This document shows, one piece after another, positions 2,815-62,640 of a stretch of 64,000 nt of DNA. The stretch spans positions 16,058,001-16,122,000 of the forward strand of contig OZ249436.1 in the NCBI GenBank assembly GCA_965235115.1, in the 5' to 3' direction. The first letter of the stretch is position 1. Each line of letters starts with the position of its first letter. The notes beneath the pieces are model-generated. The model worked only from the letters and a program-made list of their open reading frames with translations. It did not search any database and was not told where the DNA came from. Both the position numbers and the translations under genes were made by a program. The DNA is from Laetmonice hystrix. Lineage: Eukaryota.

Positions 2815-3214
2815 CCACTAAATATTGCACGGAAAAAGTAATATTGACCAGTCAATATTACTTTTGCATTGCCGTCAAGTGTTTTCACCCCTCGTGCAAA
2901 TAGGCTCCTATAGGCATTCTTAACGTAAGTTTAATAGAACAGCCTGGGGGTGACAGCGTATGATAGCAAAGCGGAAACTACGCGAGGCTGAGTTCAGAAT
3001 CTTGTATAGCCTCTAGTCTAGGCTAGCTCTAGGCCTAGCTAGATAAAGCAGTCGTGAACACGATGGATCCCTGTAGCCTATCTAATTTCCCGACATGAGA
3101 AGTTTATGTGGTGACTGATTGTTAACATTGGTCATGGTTTTGATCATGGTTTACTGGTAGAATTGTGAGTACTGACGCACTGAGGCTCAGCATACCGGTA
3201 GGCCTAGGTCTAGA

Positions 3215-4035
3215 TGTAACGTCCCTGGCCTCGTTGCCAGGTTAGCTACTGGGCTCCCAAGTCCCTTAACATGTGACACTGGATGAAAAGAACACAAACA
3301 CGCATATTTGGTAGGAAAATAACTGGTTTTATTCAAATACGGGTAGTGATAAACCTATCCTGCCTCTGATCTGAAATAGGGTTAGTACTTCTCGTTGTAT
3401 TCCTGTCGTAAAAATGAATATAATGAATATACAAGACTCAAGTCTTGTCTGAGATCCGAATATTCCATATTCGGCAGAGAACTAACCTAAAAGATCTAAC
3501 ATCTTGTTTATAATGAATTGGATCTGAATGTTCACATTCAGCTTTTTGGCCTAAATAATCAGAAAAACCCTTACTCTGGCCTTAGGCTTATGGCCATATC
3601 TGACGAGCAGACCTTACACGTATTTCCTATACGTTTCAAGCTCTGACGACAGCTTGGCATAAATTGCTGGTACAAGCATTCTTATACATGCCTATTGGCA
3701 CGTCTACCGTACATACCTGGACTTAGAGGTAGCCATTTCAGTGGTTTCGGCTTGTAAGTTACTCAGGGCAGTATTTCGTCCCTTCTTAGCTGGAGGTTTA
3801 ACGACACTCCCAGACTTATTGCAGAGACCGGGCTTTTATATCAGAGGGATATGCATATGCATGCCAGGGGAGCCAATGAGAATACGCTGGCTGACGGCGC
3901 CACTGGGCCCTGGTCAGCTGGGGGTGGGATACTTAGTCATGGGTGGCTGCACACACAGGCGATGTGTGGCCGGGGTAGCGACGTGCTTAGTGCACATGCA
4001 CTTGACACAGACGTTGGGCCAGCCCAATCGTCACA
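3215..4035 (-). repeat. 3' LTR (821 bp)
   Basis: Direct repeat of 10971-11791; minus-strand TATAAAAG at 3833-3840 and AATAAA at 3328-3333. Confidence 0.97.
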
Positions 4036-4048
4036 CACCTCCCTTTCC
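4036..4048 (-). other. Polypurine tract
   Basis: Minus strand GGAAAGGGAGGTG immediately precedes the 3' LTR. Confidence 0.9.
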
Positions 4049-4331
4049 AAAAAAGACATATGTTACACATATAACAATAGTTACTATCCTACACTAAGTT
4101 CTAGACCTACGGGTACAATAAAAGGAGCAGCATGGGTTAGGGACGACCCACTGTCCTCGACGATAATCTGAAATCAAGACAAGAGTCAACAATACAAGTC
4201 AAACAAAATGATCCAGGTTCAAATTTTAATAGGCAATATGCACAGGGTGCTCCAGACAACTCTAATTAGTCCTTTAAATGTCCCGATAAATGTTCCTGTT
4301 TGGTTGAGACACAGACAGTTAAGCCTACAAG

Positions 4332-5438
4332 TTACAACATCTCGGATGCCTGTGCCTGGCTGCGACCCTGCAGGGAGAGGGACCGGACGTCGGACGTCGT
4401 AAGTGGAAACACTTGTGTTTGTGTCAGATGGGGGTACAGCACATATCCCCTGCTAATCCTGACGTTCCTGAGGTCGGCAACTATGGATGGTCGACCCGCC
4501 CTGGACTGCTCTAGTTCGTTGTTCCTTTCTTGTAGCTCCCGGTTTTTCTGTTCCAGGCGTGTTATCTTCTCCTGGAGCTCTTGGACTTCCAAAGTCTTTA
4601 GCTTTCTCTTAAGATCGTCCCTCATCGTCCTCATCTCATGTTCCTTCCTCTCCAGGCCCCGTATGACGGTGGTGAGGACCCGTTGATCCTGGGTGTCAGG
4701 TTGATGTCCCTGGATGGCCTCCTCCAACTCCCTCTCTCCGGGTCTGGTTGAAGGGACAAGGGGTCCGCCTTTCCACACGGTCGATCTTTGTTCCGGGGGC
4801 AGTGCTCCTCCTGGCAGCTTTGTCGGAAACTGGCACGTGGTGTGTCCGGAAAAGGGGTCACAATGTGGGGTGACCGAGCCTGGTGCCTGGTACCTCACGT
4901 TTTCCCTCAAAGAACAAAACCAAACCTTGTCCTTCAGTTCCAGGGCCTTCTTGGCTTGTGCTTCATGGGCCGTGGTGATGTGCCGTTTCAAGGAACCTCG
5001 TTCTGGTGACAGGAAGCCACAGTCCGGCACTGGACACCAGTGAAGGATTATCTCTGGTTGGTGAAGATTACGCCAATGCTTGGCGAAGGCCGCATACTGC
5101 CGACTGTCTTGGCAGAGGTTCATCTGCCGGCATACTTCCACTGGACAAGGGAAGATAACTGGCTTCCCTGTCACGGTGCTCGAAATTCGTTGACACTTTT
5201 GAGCAGTGCCTTTCGGGTTGGGAATGGGTACGGTAGCCTGGCACACTTTAGCAGTGCCTTCAGCTTTAGGAGGGGTGGCCTGACACGTTAAATTCGTGCC
5301 TTTATTGCCAGGGGAATGTGGTAGGGGACTCAAGGGTGGAAAAAGGGCGCCATCATCTTCATTTAACTCATCATAATCTAATTCGACCTCCAGGGCGTCC
5401 AGTTCGGTCAGATCATGGCTAAAAAGGGAAGAGGACAT
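4332..5438 (-). CDS. Retrotransposon ORF3 of unknown function: acidic N-terminus, two C2H2-type zinc fingers, coiled coil (368 aa)
   Basis: ATG in A-rich context (ACAAAGATG) 16 nt after the pol stop; Cx4C-x17-Hx4H (aa 98-126) and Cx4C-x12-Hx4H (aa 135-158); heptad-rich helix at about aa 255-313; lies inside the LTRs. Confidence 0.8.
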   Translation of the reverse strand: MSSSLFSHDLTELDALEVELDYDELNEDDGALFPPLSPLPHSPGNKGTNLTCQATPPKAEGTAKVCQATVPIPNPKGTAQKCQRISSTVTGKPVIFPCPVEVCRQMNLCQDSRQYAAFAKHWRNLHQPEIILHWCPVPDCGFLSPERGSLKRHITTAHEAQAKKALELKDKVWFCSLRENVRYQAPGSVTPHCDPFSGHTTCQFPTKLPGGALPPEQRSTVWKGGPLVPSTRPGERELEEAIQGHQPDTQDQRVLTTVIRGLERKEHEMRTMRDDLKRKLKTLEVQELQEKITRLEQKNRELQERNNELEQSRAGRPSIVADLRNVRISRGYVLYPHLTQTQVFPLTTSDVRSLSLQGRSQAQASEML

Positions 5439-5454
5439 CTTTGTTTTATTTCAG

Positions 5455-8400
5455 TTAAAGGTCCATCCGAACTGGTGGTTTCCTTACCCTGGTGCCTCGT
5501 CTTAACGTGGTGCTGTCTGCAGTGACAGTTTTTGGGTCAGAAGGAGAGGTTTCATTCCTGTTTGGGTCAGGATTTAGACTCTCCTCTGACTCACTGTCAT
5601 CGGTTATTAGGAATGATGCATCATGCCTGTCAGGTGCTGACTCATTAACAGTCTCCTTAACTACTAACCAACTTTGTGGTGCATTGATGCCTTGGTATGG
5701 TTTCAAGGCATCCACATGTACAGTGATTACTTTACTGTGCTCTGCTTGTTGGATTTGGTAGGTGACATTAGTTAATTTCTTAACAACTAGGAATGGTCCA
5801 CGCCAGCCCTTTCCCAACTTTTCCTTCGCTTGAGGGGGGTAGTAGTGCCATACCCAGTCACCTTCTTTGAATGTACCCAAACCCGAGTCTCTATCATACA
5901 GACGTTTCTGCCTTACAGCACTTTTCTGTAGAAAAATGCGTACATATGTGAACGCTTCTTCTGTGGCCCGTCGGACCCACTGTACATACTCGATAGGGCA
6001 CCTAGCCTGATGGCTATTAGGAGGCTGCCCTACCATGACATCTAATGGTACGTTAGTCTCCCTACCCAACATAAGAAGGTTTGGAGTGCAGTTTGTGCTC
6101 TCGTGTACAGAGGCTCGGTATGCCATCATGACATACATAAGATGATCGTCCCAATCATCCCGGTTCTCATTCACATACATGGCAAGCATCTGTTGGAGGG
6201 TTCTATTAAATCGTTCTACAAGGCCATCGGACTGGGGTCTGTATGAAGTCGTTCGAGTTTTGTGCACTTGCATGAGGTCACAGATCTGTTTGAATAGATC
6301 AGATTCAAAATTTCTACCCTGATCTGAATGTAATTGTCGGGGACATCCTAAACGACTTATAAATTCCATTATACAATCAGCTACTCGCTGAGCAGTCTGA
6401 TCAGGTAATGCCCACGCTTCTGTCCACTTTGTGTAATAGTCACCTAAAACTAGGATATACTGATTGCCATTCTCTGTAATTGGTAAAGGCCCTAGAATGT
6501 CAATAGCCACTTTTTCTAATGGACTGCCAACTGCTTCTTGAGTGAGTTTAGCACGCCACCTTTTTGGACCAGGTTTTCTACGGGCACAGATGTCACATTT
6601 CTGACACCAACTGATGATGTCTCTCTTGTAACTTGGCCAATAAAACCTTTGCCTAATGTTCTTAGTCAAGCGTGTGACCCCTAAGTGACCTGCAGTACGG
6701 CTAGAGTGGAGGGAATGCAGAACCTTCTCTCGTAGTTCTGTAGGAGCTACCAGCTGCATCACTGGAATGCTACTCCCACCGGGATACCATTCTCTGTATA
6801 ACAGTCCATCCCGTACATGGAGTACCTTCCATTGTGCCCAATAAGATTTAGTAACTGCATCATATGGGGCAACCTCAGACCATCTTGGCTTTTCGTGAGA
6901 TTGCTCCTTCCACTTTAGTACCACCTGAATACAAGGATCGGCCTGTTGCCATTGTTTCAGCTGCGCCTGATCATACTGCAACAACCATTGGCCTTCACCA
7001 TTCTTTGCATCAGATTGACCAGCCTTACTGGGTACCTGCAAGTTCTGTTTTCTAGATGAATCTTTAGTTCGTCTGCCGGCCTGAACAACGTTCATCTTGT
7101 GTACAAAACAATCTGGACAGTCAACACGTCTACAACTGCGAGTTGTAGGCAACCGTGAAAGGGCATCAGCATTGGCATGTTTGGAGCCTTTACGGTGAGT
7201 AATTTGGTAATCATATGTCTCAAGTATGGTTAACCATCTAGATGTTACCTCATCATGATTAGTAAAGTTCTTTAGCCAAACCAGAGAGGCACGGTCAGTT
7301 CGGATCAGAAACTTCTGACCATATAAGTAATGCCTAAAATGCTTTACAAACTCAACTACAGCATATAGTTCTTTCTTTGTAGTGCAATAGTTCCTGCGTG
7401 ACTTATCAAGGGATTTGCTGGCATATGCAATTACACGTTCAGTACCATCTTGTACCTGATGTAACACGGCGCCGATGCCATCATTGCTGGCGTCTGTATC
7501 TAAAATAAACGTGCCCTCTTGAGTTGGATAGGCTAACACCTCAGCTGAGATTAGGCTCTGTTTTAATTTATCAAATGCTCCTTCACATTCCTCTGTCCAT
7601 TCAAATTTTACCCCTTTTCTCATCAGGTTACGAAGAGGAGCAGAAATGGTGGAAAAGTTATCTATGAACTGTCTATAATAGGAGGCGAAACCATGGAAAC
7701 TACGGACTTCTCGAGCATTACAAGGTCGAGGCCAAGTGGAGACAGCTTTGATCTTCTCAGGATCACAACTTACACCTTCTGCAGAAACGACATGACCCAG
7801 AAATTGCAACTGTCGTTTGAACAATTTGCATTTCTTGGCCTTAAGCTTAAGACCAGCATCTCTAAACCTATCAAATACCAAAGAAAGGTTAGCTAGGGTA
7901 TCTTCAAATGTCTTTCCAAAACAGATTACGTCGTCCAAATATACTAGGCATAATTGCCATTGCAAGCCACGTAGTACAAGTTCTATTAGACGCTCAAATG
8001 TAGCAGGTGCGTTTGTTAAACCGAAGGGCATGACATTAAATTGAAATAAACCCTTTCTAGTCGCAAAGGCAGTTTTTTCTTTATCCGCCTTATCCATAGG
8101 AACCTGCCAATATCCACTGGCACAATCGATTGTACAAAACCACTCAGCACCTGCTAGTGTATCTATGGTTTCGTCGATGCGTGGTAGTGGATAAGCATCC
8201 TTTTGAGTAACCTGGTTAAGTTTCCTATAGTCGACACAAAACCTAATTGTCCCGTCCTTCTTGGTTACTAAGACGATGGGTGATGCCCAGGGACTAGTGC
8301 TAGGTTCGATAACTCCCTGCTTCAGCATCTTATCAACTTCCTCATCAGCAACACTACGGCGTTGAATCGGCAAACGCCGAACTGGTTGCTTGATAGGCCT

Positions 8401-8790
8401 GCTATCTCCTGTATTGATTTTATGAGTAACTAGATTAGTACCTCCTAGTTCACCACCTGGTTCAGCAAAGATGTCTGAATAAGACAAAACCAACTTATGT
8501 ACAAGTGCAGTCTGAGCTGCAGTCAAATCCTGACTACTGTCATCTACTAATGCCTGCAGATGCTCAGGTAATACTCTACCACTGACATCTGTAGCCAAAT
8601 GTTCCTTATCTGGAGTGTACTCCAATTCTGTGAAATGTGATATGGGTTGTAGTAATGCCACAGCTACACCTTTCTTAAGGGTTACTGGTTCATTTCGGAG
8701 ATTGATAACGGTTAAAGGTACGGTTTTATTGGCTGCATTCACTAAAGCCTTACCAAAGATCACGCCTGACCTATGAGTTATGGATGCCAA
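5455..8790 (-). CDS. pol: Pol: reverse transcriptase, RNase H, integrase (1111 aa as called)
   Basis: RT YLDD and PFGL motifs; RNase H FILDTDAS; integrase H-H-C-C, DILGP, SDQGRNF, GLVER (DDE) and GPF module; no chromodomain seen. Confidence 0.97.
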   Translation of the reverse strand: MASITHRSGVIFGKALVNAANKTVPLTVINLRNEPVTLKKGVAVALLQPISHFTELEYTPDKEHLATDVSGRVLPEHLQALVDDSSQDLTAAQTALVHKLVLSYSDIFAEPGGELGGTNLVTHKINTGDSRPIKQPVRRLPIQRRSVADEEVDKMLKQGVIEPSTSPWASPIVLVTKKDGTIRFCVDYRKLNQVTQKDAYPLPRIDETIDTLAGAEWFCTIDCASGYWQVPMDKADKEKTAFATRKGLFQFNVMPFGLTNAPATFERLIELVLRGLQWQLCLVYLDDVICFGKTFEDTLANLSLVFDRFRDAGLKLKAKKCKLFKRQLQFLGHVVSAEGVSCDPEKIKAVSTWPRPCNAREVRSFHGFASYYRQFIDNFSTISAPLRNLMRKGVKFEWTEECEGAFDKLKQSLISAEVLAYPTQEGTFILDTDASNDGIGAVLHQVQDGTERVIAYASKSLDKSRRNYCTTKKELYAVVEFVKHFRHYLYGQKFLIRTDRASLVWLKNFTNHDEVTSRWLTILETYDYQITHRKGSKHANADALSRLPTTRSCRRVDCPDCFVHKMNVVQAGRRTKDSSRKQNLQVPSKAGQSDAKNGEGQWLLQYDQAQLKQWQQADPCIQVVLKWKEQSHEKPRWSEVAPYDAVTKSYWAQWKVLHVRDGLLYREWYPGGSSIPVMQLVAPTELREKVLHSLHSSRTAGHLGVTRLTKNIRQRFYWPSYKRDIISWCQKCDICARRKPGPKRWRAKLTQEAVGSPLEKVAIDILGPLPITENGNQYILVLGDYYTKWTEAWALPDQTAQRVADCIMEFISRLGCPRQLHSDQGRNFESDLFKQICDLMQVHKTRTTSYRPQSDGLVERFNRTLQQMLAMYVNENRDDWDDHLMYVMMAYRASVHESTNCTPNLLMLGRETNVPLDVMVGQPPNSHQARCPIEYVQWVRRATEEAFTYVRIFLQKSAVRQKRLYDRDSGLGTFKEGDWVWHYYPPQAKEKLGKGWRGPFLVVKKLTNVTYQIQQAEHSKVITVHVDALKPYQGINAPQSWLVVKETVNESAPDRHDASFLITDDSESEESLNPDPNRNETSPSDPKTVTADSTTLRRGTRVRKPPVRMDL

Positions 8791-9374
8791 TCTACAGCTC
8801 CTAACCCTCGAGGTATTGGCTTCCTAGAATGTTTAGCCTGAGCAATGCCTTCTACCATCATCTGACTGTCAGCTGGTATATGTATGGTGTTAGCTAAATG
8901 TACCCTGCAACAACCTTCATTGTCCTCCCTTTGCAATTGAATCTTTTGAGATCCTATCTCTAAGATACCTTTAGAGAAATCAAGTTTTGGTTGAAGCATG
9001 TCAATGAAATCTAATCCAAGCAAACCTTCCAAACTTCCTAGGTTTGAAACTAATACAGGATGTTTATATGACACATTGCCAAGTCGGATTATAGCCATGA
9101 ATTCACCTGACACATCCATTGAACTTCCATCAGCTAAGGTAAAGTTCATATTACATGGATGTAGCTGTACATCAGTCCTTTTGATTTTCTTGTAAATCGA
9201 CTGGTTAATTATCGTGCAAGACGCGCCAGTATCAACAAGAAATTTAACTTTGTGCCCGTTCACTGGAACACTCATATACCATCCATTTTGACTGTGTATC
9301 TGAAGCATTTGTTTTTGAATATTTGGCCCTTTAATCTGTCGACTGGCTGAGCTGACGGCCTCCAGGTCAGCCAA
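8778..9374 (-). CDS. pro: Aspartic protease region of pol, in the -1 frame relative to gag
   Basis: VKFLVDTGAS active-site motif and GLLGLDF flap-distal motif; no true ATG; reachable by a -1 shift at GGAAAAC at the end of gag. Confidence 0.9.
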   Translation of the reverse strand: MADLEAVSSASRQIKGPNIQKQMLQIHSQNGWYMSVPVNGHKVKFLVDTGASCTIINQSIYKKIKRTDVQLHPCNMNFTLADGSSMDVSGEFMAIIRLGNVSYKHPVLVSNLGSLEGLLGLDFIDMLQPKLDFSKGILEIGSQKIQLQREDNEGCCRVHLANTIHIPADSQMMVEGIAQAKHSRKPIPRGLGAVDWHP

Positions 9375-9376
9375 TT

Positions 9377-10654
9377 TTAGTTTTCCGAATTAGAGGCTTC
9401 AGCCTGCTCCTTATACTTTGTACAGTTTCTTTGAACATGACCTAGTTCCTTACAGTACCAGCATCTAAGGTTGCGATGCCTATTGCCTAAATCAGACCTC
9501 TGCTGTTGACTCACTGCCAGCACTGGAGGTTTCTTAGCATATGTGCTACATTCATTGAACACTTCAAAATCTACTGCGAGAGTGATGGCATCATTCATTG
9601 TCTTTGGATGGTGGAAATGTACATGTTGCCTCATTGAGTGACTCAACCCAGTTTTAAATTGATCGAGCAACCACTCTTCTTGTGCCTCTGTGCTCTGATT
9701 TGGAAATGCCCTTTTAACCAATCTTCTCAATTCATAACCATAGTCAATTAGTTTCTCATTTGGTTTTCTGAACCGTTTTCTGAATTCGGATTTATACACA
9801 TCTTCCCTGCCAGATGGGTTAAACCTGTGTGTTAGTGCTTCCACCATAGCAGCGTAACTTAACTGTAGTTCTCTGGGCAAGTTGGTTATAGTACTTCTAG
9901 CTTCTTTTGTCATGCTCATACCCAGTTGAATACCCTTTTCACTTTCAGACCACTCGTTCCATTGGCTTACTTTCTCAAAATAGTCTAAGTATTCCTGCAA
10001 ATCACTTTCACCAGTATACATCTCAGGGTCTTTCTGACGCCTCTTGATGTGTTGCTGAGATTGTGATTGCACAGGAAAATAAGACTCAGTCCTTTGTGGT
10101 TGATTCTGAATAGGTAGTGAATACGCCATTGGACTTGTGGGTTGAGTGTGGATGGGTGTTGAATACACCATTGGACCTGCTGATTGGGTGTGGATGGGTG
10201 TTGAATACACCCTTTGGCCTGTTGGTGTTTGCACACTTGTAGGATGTGCACTGTACCATCCGGCAATGGGAGGTGGTGGAGTGATCCAGGGACTGGTGTA
10301 ATTAGTGGCTTGACCTGTATTAGGCATTTGACTGGGAGTTCCAGTACTACACACTGGACCTTTGTTACTGTATGTGGGCGTGGTTACTGTGTAAGTCTCA
10401 TGAAGAGTGCCAGCTGAGTAACTGTACGCAGGTATGTGATTCTCGTGAATTGATTGGTAAGTGGGTACGGGTGCACTTGTTATTGGTAAAACTGTTTGTG
10501 CTCTCAACAGTGTTGAGTCTTCTAGGTCAGATTTTCTAACCACCCGTTCTTCCTTGTGCACAGTTAAAGGATCCCTGAGTGTATCGCTGTCAGTACTGTT
10601 TGATACGTGAAACCATTGTGAAACCGTTTCGTGTAATGATCTCCACCAAGACAT
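9377..10654 (-). CDS. gag: Gag (capsid plus CCHC nucleocapsid), 425 aa
   Basis: Capsid-like YTGESDLQEYLDYFEKVSQWNEW segment; zinc knuckle CWYCKELGHVQRNC; ends TCG GAA AAC TAA. Confidence 0.93.
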   Translation of the reverse strand: MSWWRSLHETVSQWFHVSNSTDSDTLRDPLTVHKEERVVRKSDLEDSTLLRAQTVLPITSAPVPTYQSIHENHIPAYSYSAGTLHETYTVTTPTYSNKGPVCSTGTPSQMPNTGQATNYTSPWITPPPPIAGWYSAHPTSVQTPTGQRVYSTPIHTQSAGPMVYSTPIHTQPTSPMAYSLPIQNQPQRTESYFPVQSQSQQHIKRRQKDPEMYTGESDLQEYLDYFEKVSQWNEWSESEKGIQLGMSMTKEARSTITNLPRELQLSYAAMVEALTHRFNPSGREDVYKSEFRKRFRKPNEKLIDYGYELRRLVKRAFPNQSTEAQEEWLLDQFKTGLSHSMRQHVHFHHPKTMNDAITLAVDFEVFNECSTYAKKPPVLAVSQQQRSDLGNRHRNLRCWYCKELGHVQRNCTKYKEQAEASNSEN

Positions 10655-10951
10655 CTTGACAGTATTTTCAATTATTAAATACAGTAAATATCAATTTAAT
10701 TCAAACTGATTACTCAGCTAAATATATGAACTCAGTTAAATGCAGGATAATAACAAAATAGCCTGTAAACCAATTATTGATCACAGTACCAATTTGTGTA
10801 ATTCTCCACATTTGGGCATAGTACTAAATTGTGTTTCAGTTGTGTCTCTCCATCCAGAATTAGTCACGGTACCAAACTGTGTAATTCTTCGGAATTACTT
10901 CAAAATTGGTCGCGGCACCAAATTGTGTAATTCTTCAGAATTACTTTAAAA

Positions 10952-10965
10952 TGGTCACGGCACCA
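10952..10965 (-). other. Primer-binding site complementary to the tRNA-His 3' end
   Basis: Minus strand TGGTGCCGTGACCA, 5 nt inside the 5' LTR; complementary to the ...UGGUCACGGCACCA end of metazoan tRNA-His(GUG), recalled from memory. Confidence 0.85.
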
Positions 10966-10970
10966 AATTG

Positions 10971-11791
10971 TGTAACGTCCCTGGCCTCGTTGCCAGGTTA
11001 GCTACTGGGCTCCCAAGTCCCTTAACATGTGACACTGGATGAAAAGAACACAAACACGCATATTTGGTAGGAAAATAACTGGTTTTATTCAAATACGGGT
11101 AGTGATAAACCTATCCTGCCTCTGATCTGAAATAGGGTTAGTACTTCTCGTTGTATTCCTGTCGTAAAAATGAATATAATGAATATACAAGACTCAAGTC
11201 TTGTCTGAGATCCGAATATTCCATATTCGGCAGAGAACTAACCTAAAAGATCTAACATCTTGTTTATAATGAATTGGATCTGAATGTTCACATTCAGCTT
11301 TTTGGCCTAAATAATCAGAAAAACCCTTACTCTGGCCTTAGGCTTATGGCCATATCTGACGAGCAGACCTTACACGTATTTCCTATACGTTTCAAGCTCT
11401 GACGACAGCTTGGCATAAATTGCTGGTACAAGCATTCTTATACATGCCTATTGGCACGTCTACCGTACATACCTGGACTTAGAGGTAGCCATTTCAGTGG
11501 TTTCGGCTTGTAAGTTACTCAGGGCAGTATTTCGTCCCTTCTTAGCTGGAGGTTTAACGACACTCCCAGACTTATTGCAGAGACCGGGCTTTTATATCAG
11601 AGGGATATGCATATGCATGCCAGGGGAGCCAATGAGAATACGCTGGCTGACGGCGCCACTGGGCCCTGGTCAGCTGGGGGTGGGATACTTAGTCATGGGT
11701 GGCTGCACACACAGGCGATGTGTGGCCGGGGTAGCGACGTGCTTAGTGCACATGCACTTGACACAGACGTTGGGCCAGCCCAATCGTCACA
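10971..11791 (-). repeat. 5' LTR (821 bp)
   Basis: TGTAACGTCC...TCGTCACA on +; no mismatch found by eye against 3215-4035; TATAAAAG on the minus strand at 11589-11596. Confidence 0.97.
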
Positions 11792-11870
11792 TGGAATAAA
11801 GTTAAACTGACTGTGCAGTCGTCGATGGGTCCTGGCATAGACAGGAAAAGTGCGGCAGTCATAAAATAAA

Positions 11871-13205: not shown

Positions 13206-13730
13206 CTGGTATTATCGTCTGATCAGGAGCGGCTTCTCTTGATACACAACTGGAGCCTGGTATGATCAGGACGGGCTTCCCTTGATACACAACTGGAGCC
13301 TGGTATGATCAGGACGGGCTTCCCTTGATACACAACTGGAGCCTGGTATGATCAGGACGGGCTTCCCTTGATACACAACTGGAGCCTGGTATGATCAGGA
13401 CGGGCTTCCCTTGATACACAACTGGAGCCTGGTATGATCAGGACGGGCTTCCCTTGATACACAACTGGAGCCTGGTATGATCAGGACGGGCTTCCCTTGA
13501 TACACAACTGGAGCCTGGTATGATCAGGATGGGCTTCCCTTGATACACAACTGGAGCCTGGTATGATCAGGACGGGCTTCCCTTGATACACAACTGGAGC
13601 CTGGTATGATCAGGACGGGCTTCCCTTGATACACAACTGGAGCCTGGTATGATCAGGACGGGCTTCCCTTGATACACAACTGGAGCCTGGTTTGATCAGG
13701 ATCCGATGGGCTTCATTCGATACACAACTC
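13206..13730. repeat. 43-bp minisatellite, about 12 copies
   Basis: Unit GATACACAACTGGAGCCTGGTATGATCAGGACGGGCTTCCCTT; period 43 from 13241 to 13671, with degenerate flanking copies. Confidence 0.95.
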
Positions 13731-18098: not shown

Positions 18099-37167
<19,069 letters not shown>

Positions 37168-60354: not shown

Positions 60355-61027
60355 GTCTCTCTCTCTCGCTCTCTCGCTCTCTCAATTTTATTATACGTTT
60401 ATCAAGCCGGTGTCCATACGATCTGTATCGTGTTCAAATGACCACTTTACTGTATGGTAATTGTCCAACTGACGGGAGATATGGCCAATCTGTTGTGTGG
60501 CTGTAGAGCTCATTAGCTAGCCCCTTTCCTGCGGACATTATGGCAGGGTAGTGAGGAGAATATGGAAAGGAAGTATCATTGTTGTAAACACTTTTCCAGA
60601 GATTCTGATAGTAGTTAATCCACAATAATCAAGCCTCGCTATAAATGTATTTGTCATAATCGCTTCTATAAAGGATTGCCCAATAATGAATCACACAGAA
60701 GAAATATGATCCACATCAAAGAAAGTGTTAGTATTTATACTAGTATCGCGTTTTGATGACTTTAATATATGTTGAGACGGCGGCGGGGGCCTTGCCTGAC
60801 CACAGCCTAACCCAATTTAATCAATAATCCGGTTTAGATTTTTGGGAAGTGGATTTACATCTTTTTTTGGTTCTTGTTGGCATTGACCGTAGTAAAGAAA
60901 TAAAAAAAAGCGGGGGGGGGGGGGTTCTCGATAACATCAGTGGCTAAATCCTCCGTGTTCGTAACCTGAATTGTCAAAAGGGCGTTGCCTCTTTACCCTT
61001 TGACAAACATGGAATGTTGTGGTGAAA

Positions 61028-61592
61028 GTAGTTACACACATCTTAGTTAGGTAATGTTGAGATTAATAACGCGGTTCAAGCTCCAGCCAAGTAGTTACAC
61101 ACAGCTTAGTTAGGTAATGTCGAGATTAATAACGCGGTTCAAGCTCCAGCCAAGTAGTTACACACATCTTAGTCAGGTAATATCGAGATTAATAACGCGG
61201 TTCAAGCTCCAGCCAAGTAGTTACACACAGCTTAGTTAGGTAATATTAAGATTAGTAACGCGGTTCAAGCTCCAGCCAAGTAGTTACACACAGCTTAGTT
61301 AGGTAATATCGAGATTAATAACGCGGTTTAAGCTCCAGCCAAGTAGTTACACACATCTTAGTTAGGTAATGTTGAGATTAATAACGCGGTTCAAGCTCCA
61401 GCCAAGTAGTTACACACATCTTAGTTAGGTAATATCGAGATTAATAACGCGGTTTAAGCTCCAGCCAAGTAGTTACACACATCTTAGTTAGGTAATGTTG
61501 AGATTAATAACGCGGTTTAAGCTCCAGCCAAGTAGTTACACACATCTTAGTTAGGTAATATCGAGATTAATAACGTGGTTCAAGCTCCAGCC
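61028..61592. repeat. 63-bp minisatellite, about 9 copies
   Basis: Unit GTAGTTACACACATCTTAGTTAGGTAATGTTGAGATTAATAACGCGGTTCAAGCTCCAGCCAA; stops in all six frames. Confidence 0.96.
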
Positions 61593-62640
61593 TAGTTCAC
61601 CCAAGGTTCATATTATCGTTGTCAGAGTACATTATTTATAAGGTTGTATGGGTGCAATGTGTGCACAAACCCCTTTGGTGTATGTGCAGAAGCCTGGGAG
61701 TGGCCCACACCCGGGCCCCACTTTGTGTATACTACTAACTGTGTGTCCGCGACAACATCGCTTCGCGGTGTACAATACACTCTGTCATGATCCATACAAT
61801 CAGGCACACCCGTTTTCACTGCAAATGGGTTTCCTAGGTGCAATGTGTACTAAGGTATAACTACGCCGTCATTTGTTTGATGAATAACCCTGAAACCCAA
61901 TGCGAAACCTTTAAAACCTTCACTGTATTTTTTTTAATGGAGAACATATTGCTTGTAGAAGAGGGGAAGTGGTGACTGGAATTTCTAGACGTATCCGCGG
62001 GTTTTAAGTGTTTGAGTGGTTCTGCTGTAGCGGCCACACCCAGCAGTGTTCAGGTGACGGCGTGATGGCTTTACCCGGCCCGTCTCGCCCAGGTGTGGCT
62101 GCCTGGTGGTTCTATACAGGTGTGATTTGATCAGATGCACCATCAATGTCATGTTCAGTGTCGCGGTTATAGTTGACGATGTCTCCCTCGCACGTTACCC
62201 TTCACCGCTATAGCTTACCTGAGAATTTCTTTGAGGACAAGGGGGATGTCATCTTGATTCTTAGCCCGGTACTCGACCTGTAAGTGTAATGAGGACAGCA
62301 CCAGCGGCCACAGCCAGATAAGACAATGGGCGTAAGATGAGTTGAGAAGAAAGGGTTGAAAAATCCCGACAATCTACCTGTTATCTTCTTGTTGCTATAG
62401 TTTCTGCTCCTATGGCAGTGACATAGACTATATACTGAAAAGAACAAGGGGGGAAACAATTAACAACAGAAGATGCATGCTCTATGTCAAAAAAGGAAAT
62501 ATCACTCTGTTCATATTTTTTTATTTCGTTTTCGGTTGATCGAGGATTTTGAGGGTGGTTGAAGAATCATTTACAGAGCACTCGACACCTGAAATCCCGT
62601 GCCGGTTCTGTCATTATCACTTTTATGCAATGACAAACTG

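Follow-up and report, generated by a model that had tools for sequence, protein, structure and literature searches.

The window, 64,000 nucleotides of a contig of Laetmonice hystrix (OZ249436.1), carries on its minus strand, at 3215-11791, a young Ty3/gypsy LTR retrotransposon primed by tRNA-His (Table 1). Protease, reverse transcriptase (RT), RNase H and integrase follow gag in the order typical of gypsy elements, and both a primer-binding site (PBS) complementary to a host tRNA and a polypurine tract are present. The flanking target site duplication (TSD; 3211-3214 and 11792-11795) matches at three of four bases, while sibling copies have exact 4-bp TSDs; the insertion point is a very high-copy repeat (contig depth of about 50,000), and the target may have lost bases. 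Relatives of the element have 60-69% identity, with a few bivalve proteins among them. A TATA-like box at 11596 and an AATAAA signal at 11089 (both minus strand) enclose a second tRNA-complementary sequence, hereafter site B. A splice-donor-like site lies at 11472 (minus strand), some 120 nt past the TATA-like box, and appears similar by eye in L066, L070 and L075. By eye, the additional frame downstream of pol has Cys/His clusters and ends in what resembles a coiled coil. Unrelated minisatellites with periods of 43, 46 and 63 occur elsewhere in the window (13220-13701, 18422-19759 and 61026-61596). The family (LTRs of L001-L030) has the U5 end and gag in common, yet comprises three to four subtypes with non-alignable upstream LTR sequence, which suggests LTR swapping.

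Table 1. Features of the retrotransposon, in window coordinates
Feature	Position	Strand	Remarks
5' LTR	10971..11791	-	821 bp; TG...CA ends; 821/821 bases identical with 3' LTR
3' LTR	3215..4035	-	stops at first junction without array unit; second copy of site B at 3380-3398
gag	9377..10654	-	Ty3 capsid-like (weak); CCHC knuckle; begins at first ATG
Aspartyl protease frame	8778..9389	-	
pol	5455..8823	-	RT, RNase H, integrase; gypsy order
Additional frame, 372 aa	4332..5450	-	downstream of pol; no Pfam family
Polypurine tract	4036..4048	-	read from sequence
Site B	11136..11154	-	19-nt exact complement of host tRNA-His 17-35; predicted in R
5-nt spacer, LTR end to PBS	10966..10970	-	invariant in 11/11 leaders
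PBS1, working primer site	10952..10965	-	14 nt complementary to tRNA-His 62-75; 0/14 columns variable in 11 copies
PBS-like copy 2	10907..10920	-	13/14; unit in 5/11 copies
PBS-like copy 3	10861..10874	-	12/14
PBS-like copy 4	10813..10826	-	9/14; predicted tRNA duplex only -5.9 kcal/mol
PBS-like copy 5	10778..10791	-	11/14
Unit 1 inverted repeat	10927..10944	-	7 bp, 4-nt loop; stem invariant, loop variable
Unit 2 inverted repeat	10881..10898	-	7 bp, 4-nt loop

The junction array in the leader

Between the 5' LTR and gag, the first-pass annotation had described five tandem copies of the junction that joins the LTR terminus, a short spacer and a tRNA-His PBS. All five were confirmed at their positions, spaced by 45, 46, 48 and 35 bp, and the assignment of the PBS holds against the tRNA-His(GTG) genes of the same genome, which served as the reference tRNA. 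The decay away from the LTR that it had proposed is not monotonic, the fourth copy (9/14) being followed by a better fifth one (11/14). Likewise, the TTACA-CAATT junction recurs along the array, but unit 4 has GAAACA, units 3 and 5 deviate in the 5-nt spacer, and only 5 nt make up the "LTR end" common to the units. On both strands of the window, ten sites combine at least 9/14 PBS identity with ACA at the same upstream offset, and five of these ten lie within the 190-bp array. The array was found again at ten other LTR-linked loci and is spanned by DNA contigs of one sample; this recurrence, together with the read-derived contig coverage, excludes an assembly artefact. Past the PBS, the sequence looks like the junction copied in inverted orientation, which may be why the PBS ends at 14 nt. 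A possible old PBS inside the family's own U5 (11/18 by eye) was too weak to be retained.

For the family, 30 of 44 genome matches were fetched, of which 11 are LTR-linked leaders. Five units are present in 5/11 leaders and four, the minimum, in 6/11, the difference being one 46-bp unit adjoining the LTR; an LTR-less fragment (L014) contains six units in scrambled order. In the leader alignment, the tRNA-complementary bases of units 2-5 showed no preferential conservation, with 14/56 variable columns versus 13/74 at other array positions (p=0.38) and 29/115 in the downstream leader (p=1.0), counts that treat related copies as independent events. The contrast in variability between PBS1 and the extra sites reached only p=0.057. 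Gag was not used as background, since gaps had been ignored in counting it and its variability is raised by indels.

Under the standard replication scheme, priming from a downstream site would lengthen new LTRs by at least one unit. Of 15 ends of 3' or solo LTRs in the family, none extends past the first junction (two inverted ends in L022 were left out). The hairpin pattern of the unit gave 19/19 matches at the 12 leader loci and no control match, and footprints of tRNA copying follow the first junction in L007, L013, L020 and L023. The LTR end and spacer are followed in L023 (1622-1710) by a 72-nt antisense copy of mature tRNA-His, including the complement of CCA, its only mismatch being the D-loop U at tRNA position 19, and in L013 by a 59-nt copy that likewise includes the CCA complement; both then fold back into inverted LTR sequence. 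These copies point to priming by tRNA-His with read-through past position 58. In L020 and L141, one 4-bp TSD encloses the LTR, an 18-nt PBS, roughly 100 bases of unrelated sequence and a second, short LTR end. The PBS is rarely overwritten from the tRNA (1/11 copies in each of two families), and the exact slip step is uncertain for this reason.

Duplication and absorption of junctions in sister families

A survey of the genome for His-type PBSs gave 109 exact matches, of which 100 were listed and 79 loci fetched, nearly all of them outside the family. Junction duplications were detected in 3/45 own-genome clusters (with L136 dropped) and in 3/82 metagenome clusters (L193 being marginal) by a scan that misses decayed units. 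L136 was rejected as a junction duplication and is really a 30-bp minisatellite, with at least 13 units from the PBS-like match onward, each containing a 16-nt His-PBS-like stretch, and no evident LTR. A further duplication, in L107, was recognized by eye outside the PBS filter of the scan, and a metagenome contig (L224) contains an exact three-unit junction array. In many sister families (L272-L281, L291, L293, L304, L317, L333), the His PBS is bulged or has mismatches, and a copy that fits the tRNA perfectly is rare.

In some sister families, the duplicated junction lies inside the LTR. The L125 family, for which 20 of 41 matches were fetched, has a decayed upstream junction within the LTR in 11/11 5' junctions and in 9/9 3' or solo ends. 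In the L333 family, short LTR ends that stop at the first junction (L299, L306, L332) coexist with long ends that have two PBS-bearing units (L309, L335, L337, L341), and matching 4-bp TSDs flank the long solo LTRs L347 and L348 as well as the short solo LTR L350. L351 of the same family is long at both ends and has a third PBS after its 5' LTR. One or two such absorbed units were also noticed by eye in several further subfamilies. Absorbed junctions in both LTRs and TSD-flanked solo LTRs imply, under the standard scheme, priming from the downstream site, so in sister families a downstream PBS can apparently become the working primer site while the upstream unit is turned into U5. Junction duplication is, as far as these sequences tell, recurrent in this group, and the family in the window is in the unabsorbed state.

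This comparison and the variation among leaders bear on what the extra copies are. Unit numbers of four or five, drifting extra sites and LTR ends that stop at the first junction support one of the earlier suggestions, namely scars of template switching. Two others, spare priming sites and decoys for tRNA fragments or PBS-binding repressors, were rejected in view of the drift of the extra sites, which vary like the neighbouring leader, and of the recurrent junction duplications in sister families, both of which the first-pass annotation had named as grounds for refutation. The absence of downstream priming at all 15 LTR ends likewise speaks against them, and we consider them very improbable. 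Their appeal lies in predicted pairing with the tRNA end (-28.8, -25.1, -20.0, -5.9 and -17.5 kcal/mol for units 1-5), which units 2, 3 and 5 could still achieve while unit 4 has almost lost it, in a unit 2 that is a perfect PBS in L003, and in the downstream priming of sister families. Targeting by 3' tRNA fragments, which has been studied in mouse, tolerates some mismatches there (PMC12853362), but extra targets on one RNA would more plausibly raise repression than relieve it.

Alternatively, the array might be kept as structural RNA, its stacked hairpins acting in packaging, dimerisation or the gating of access to the PBS, with an incidental match to the tRNA. The young units each form a predicted hairpin whose loop holds the PBS core, and the 7-bp stems of units 1 and 2 are invariant (0/28 variable positions versus 11/43 elsewhere, p=0.0025) where the loops vary. 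At least four units are kept in 11/11 leaders, and short palindromes are seen in units 3-5. However, both stems belong to the youngest units and units 3-5 are without one, the better folding of the array region (z=-3.1) was measured against shuffles, which take no account of a self-complementary unit being repeated in tandem, and in L066, the nearest sister element (70% identical in gag), a single PBS stands without any array. Structural maintenance seems unlikely, if clearly less so than a decoy function, although the array may be under some constraint, as the stems and the folding suggest. Its best reading is that of a scar of replication, and such scars are common in this group.

Site B, a second tRNA-complementary site in the LTR

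The first-pass annotation omitted site B, which covers the 3' side of the D arm, the anticodon stem's 5' strand and the anticodon loop of tRNA-His. It emerged when the entire element was compared with the tRNA; no match to any of 300 shuffled tRNAs exceeded 11 nt, versus the 19 nt observed. In 29/32 LTR ends of the family, a core of 10 nt or more lies 172-186 nt before the end, the three exceptions being rearranged ends, and it is kept across the three to four LTR subtypes. A YGATCR motif upstream of site B occurred in only 6/30 rows. At the sequence level, the tRNA that matches the PBS thus has a further complementary site in the element, as in extended primer systems.

Beyond the family, the site B pattern had 244 matches in the genome versus 7 for the control, about 44 of the 244 being tRNA-like loci. 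An exact match was found in 11/45 own-genome His-PBS clusters versus none in three times as much control sequence. In the reverse test, with 55 of the first 100 listed site B matches, every downstream PBS that was found is His-type; a His PBS was found directly in 5/12 clusters, two more belong to known His-primed families, and the rest are solo, truncated or chance matches. Site B was absent by exact match from 34/45 own-genome and 60/78 metagenome clusters, many of them not verified LTR elements, and it is also lacking by exact match in cluster 1, a five-copy, RT-bearing family. It stands about 30 to 300 nt from the PBS, depending on the family, and in some of them it lies, by eye, downstream of an ATTAAA signal; poly(A) and TATA positions were computed for 6/12 families. 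An eight-copy solo-LTR-like family (L302, L311, L319, L328, L330, L334, L343, L344) has site B and a TTATA end, with no PBS seen.

The metagenome set comprised 106 junctions in 82 clusters, 78 of which have enough upstream DNA. For 18 of these 78, a 7-nt site B anchor occurs in the upstream DNA, on the sense strand, versus 2, 4 and 2 in three controls. Eukaryotic tRNA-His carries m1G37, and in 17/18 clusters an A stands opposite position 37, the match stopping at position 36. The base next to the anchor changes with the PBS type without exception (13/0/0/5 clusters, p=1.2e-4, the clusters being phylogenetically non-independent), and this covariation may amount to one invertebrate-versus-fish contrast. 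The site B variant matches positions 24-36 of human tRNA-His (PMC12217144). Because human tRNA-His deviates from the corresponding PBS type in the T stem, the fish tRNA is one that we only infer. One carrier of the variant (L237) is 65% identical to a fish Gypsy polyprotein, and protein comparison gave no named relative for L188. A Pfam gag family was recognized in only 1/11 metagenome frames tested, and a scan of viral contigs found nothing. On one metagenome contig, a deoxynucleoside kinase frame (L196:1975-2475) lies downstream of a His-PBS junction with site B.

Site B might serve something other than priming, either as a target of the tRNA-His 5' half, as a site for a second tRNA in regulation, packaging or strand transfer via the 3' copy of R, or as a repeatedly captured piece of reverse-transcribed tRNA. 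The family's RT is able to extend its tRNA copy well beyond position 58 (59 nt in L013 and 72 nt in L023), site B is predicted in R and hence at both RNA ends, and its distance from the PBS is loose. We nevertheless regard these possibilities, taken together, as rather improbable, somewhat more so than structural maintenance of the array, given the single orientation and single register ending at position 36, the exclusively His-type PBS partners, the survival of the site amid non-alignable upstream flanks, and the location downstream of ATTAAA in some families, which would place it at the 5' RNA end only. A role in priming is what we infer for site B from its sequence.

Proposed primer capture and comparison with known systems

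Taken together, the five units are probably copies of the LTR-end/primer-site junction that likely arose by slips of reverse transcription; the family probably primes from the first of them, with site B likely helping to capture the primer. Plus-strand strong-stop DNA, which ends in the PBS, could anneal out of register and in this way both make and remove units, and the self-complementary ends of the His PBS would help such annealing. Junction duplication followed by a shift in priming would offer a route for the growth of U5. Site B might nucleate on the anticodon loop and open the anticodon and D stems, its pairing halting at position 36 where m1G37 cannot pair, and it could compensate for the short PBS here and for the bulged PBS of many sister families. 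In a pseudoknot-free co-fold, the tRNA paired with site B alone and not with both sites; the two-site geometry is a crossing one. A broader reading, which we put forward tentatively and consider possible rather than probable, is that a His-primed gypsy group ranging from marine invertebrates to fish captures its primer by two long helices, one with the tRNA 3' end and one with the anticodon arm up to m1G37, the second site following the host tRNA. The PBS would thereby be free to be short, bulged or duplicated, duplication and priming shifts would build U5 from dead junctions, and the window would show a stage before absorption.

More than one PBS per leader is reportedly known from a variant of HIV-1 whose dual PBS was stable (Li et al. 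1997). That was a laboratory variant using two different tRNAs, whereas the tandem junctions here are natural, match the same tRNA and are absorbed into U5 in sister families. A Repbase-based paper is also reported to have described a tRNA-related signature in Gypsy LTRs, and we have discounted the novelty of our findings accordingly. The bipartite 5'-3' PBS of Ty3 and the multipartite PBS of Ty1 resemble the present case in their extended primer contacts, with extra complementarity to the primer tRNA, a supplemented short PBS and a PBS that is rarely overwritten and mostly not inherited from the tRNA (PMC5371799, PMC1635307). However, the primer of Ty1 and Ty3 is tRNA-iMet, contacted at the T and D arms from U3, whereas here a second site of 10-19 nt, which lies upstream of the PBS in predicted R or U5, matches the anticodon arm (22-36) of tRNA-His. 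Drosophila Gypsy, also a Ty3/gypsy element, has a second site that is complementary to an inner stretch of its primer tRNA and was dispensable for cDNA synthesis (PMC1635307). That tRNA-Lys site comprises 11 nt near the 3' end and matches the anticodon and T stems (PMC1635307), whereas site B lies in the LTR upstream of the PBS and in many families and hosts.

An upstream site that pairs with the primer anticodon loop, as site B is predicted to do, is described for HIV-1 in its A-rich loop and PAS, where stable use of tRNA-His is described only with both the PBS and the A-loop changed (PMC3185550). The HIV-1 contacts span 4-8 nt and are debated (PMC3185550), whereas site B is a long perfect complement in natural retrotransposons. 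Helenus TRIMs of animals likewise have tRNA-related sequence in their LTRs and His-primed Gypsy partners with 4-bp TSDs; theirs is a sense, tRNA-like Pol III promoter for which no complementarity role is reported (PMC10886601), whereas site B is antisense and short and belongs to autonomous elements. A literature search, with most subscription papers outside its reach, returned no description of such an array, of its absorption into U5 or of site B. Junctions absorbed into U5, combined with an anticodon-arm site that may follow the host tRNA, would be a new variation on the primer-binding systems known so far.

By itself, the array is of modest interest. Comparison across families, on the other hand, provides evidence from genomes that duplicated primer junctions can serve to rebuild LTR ends, and it bears on the evolution of U5, of the integrase attachment site and of primer choice. 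Site B marks His-primed LTRs, solo LTRs included, and would be a form of the anticodon contact debated in HIV-1 that is natural, long and widespread.
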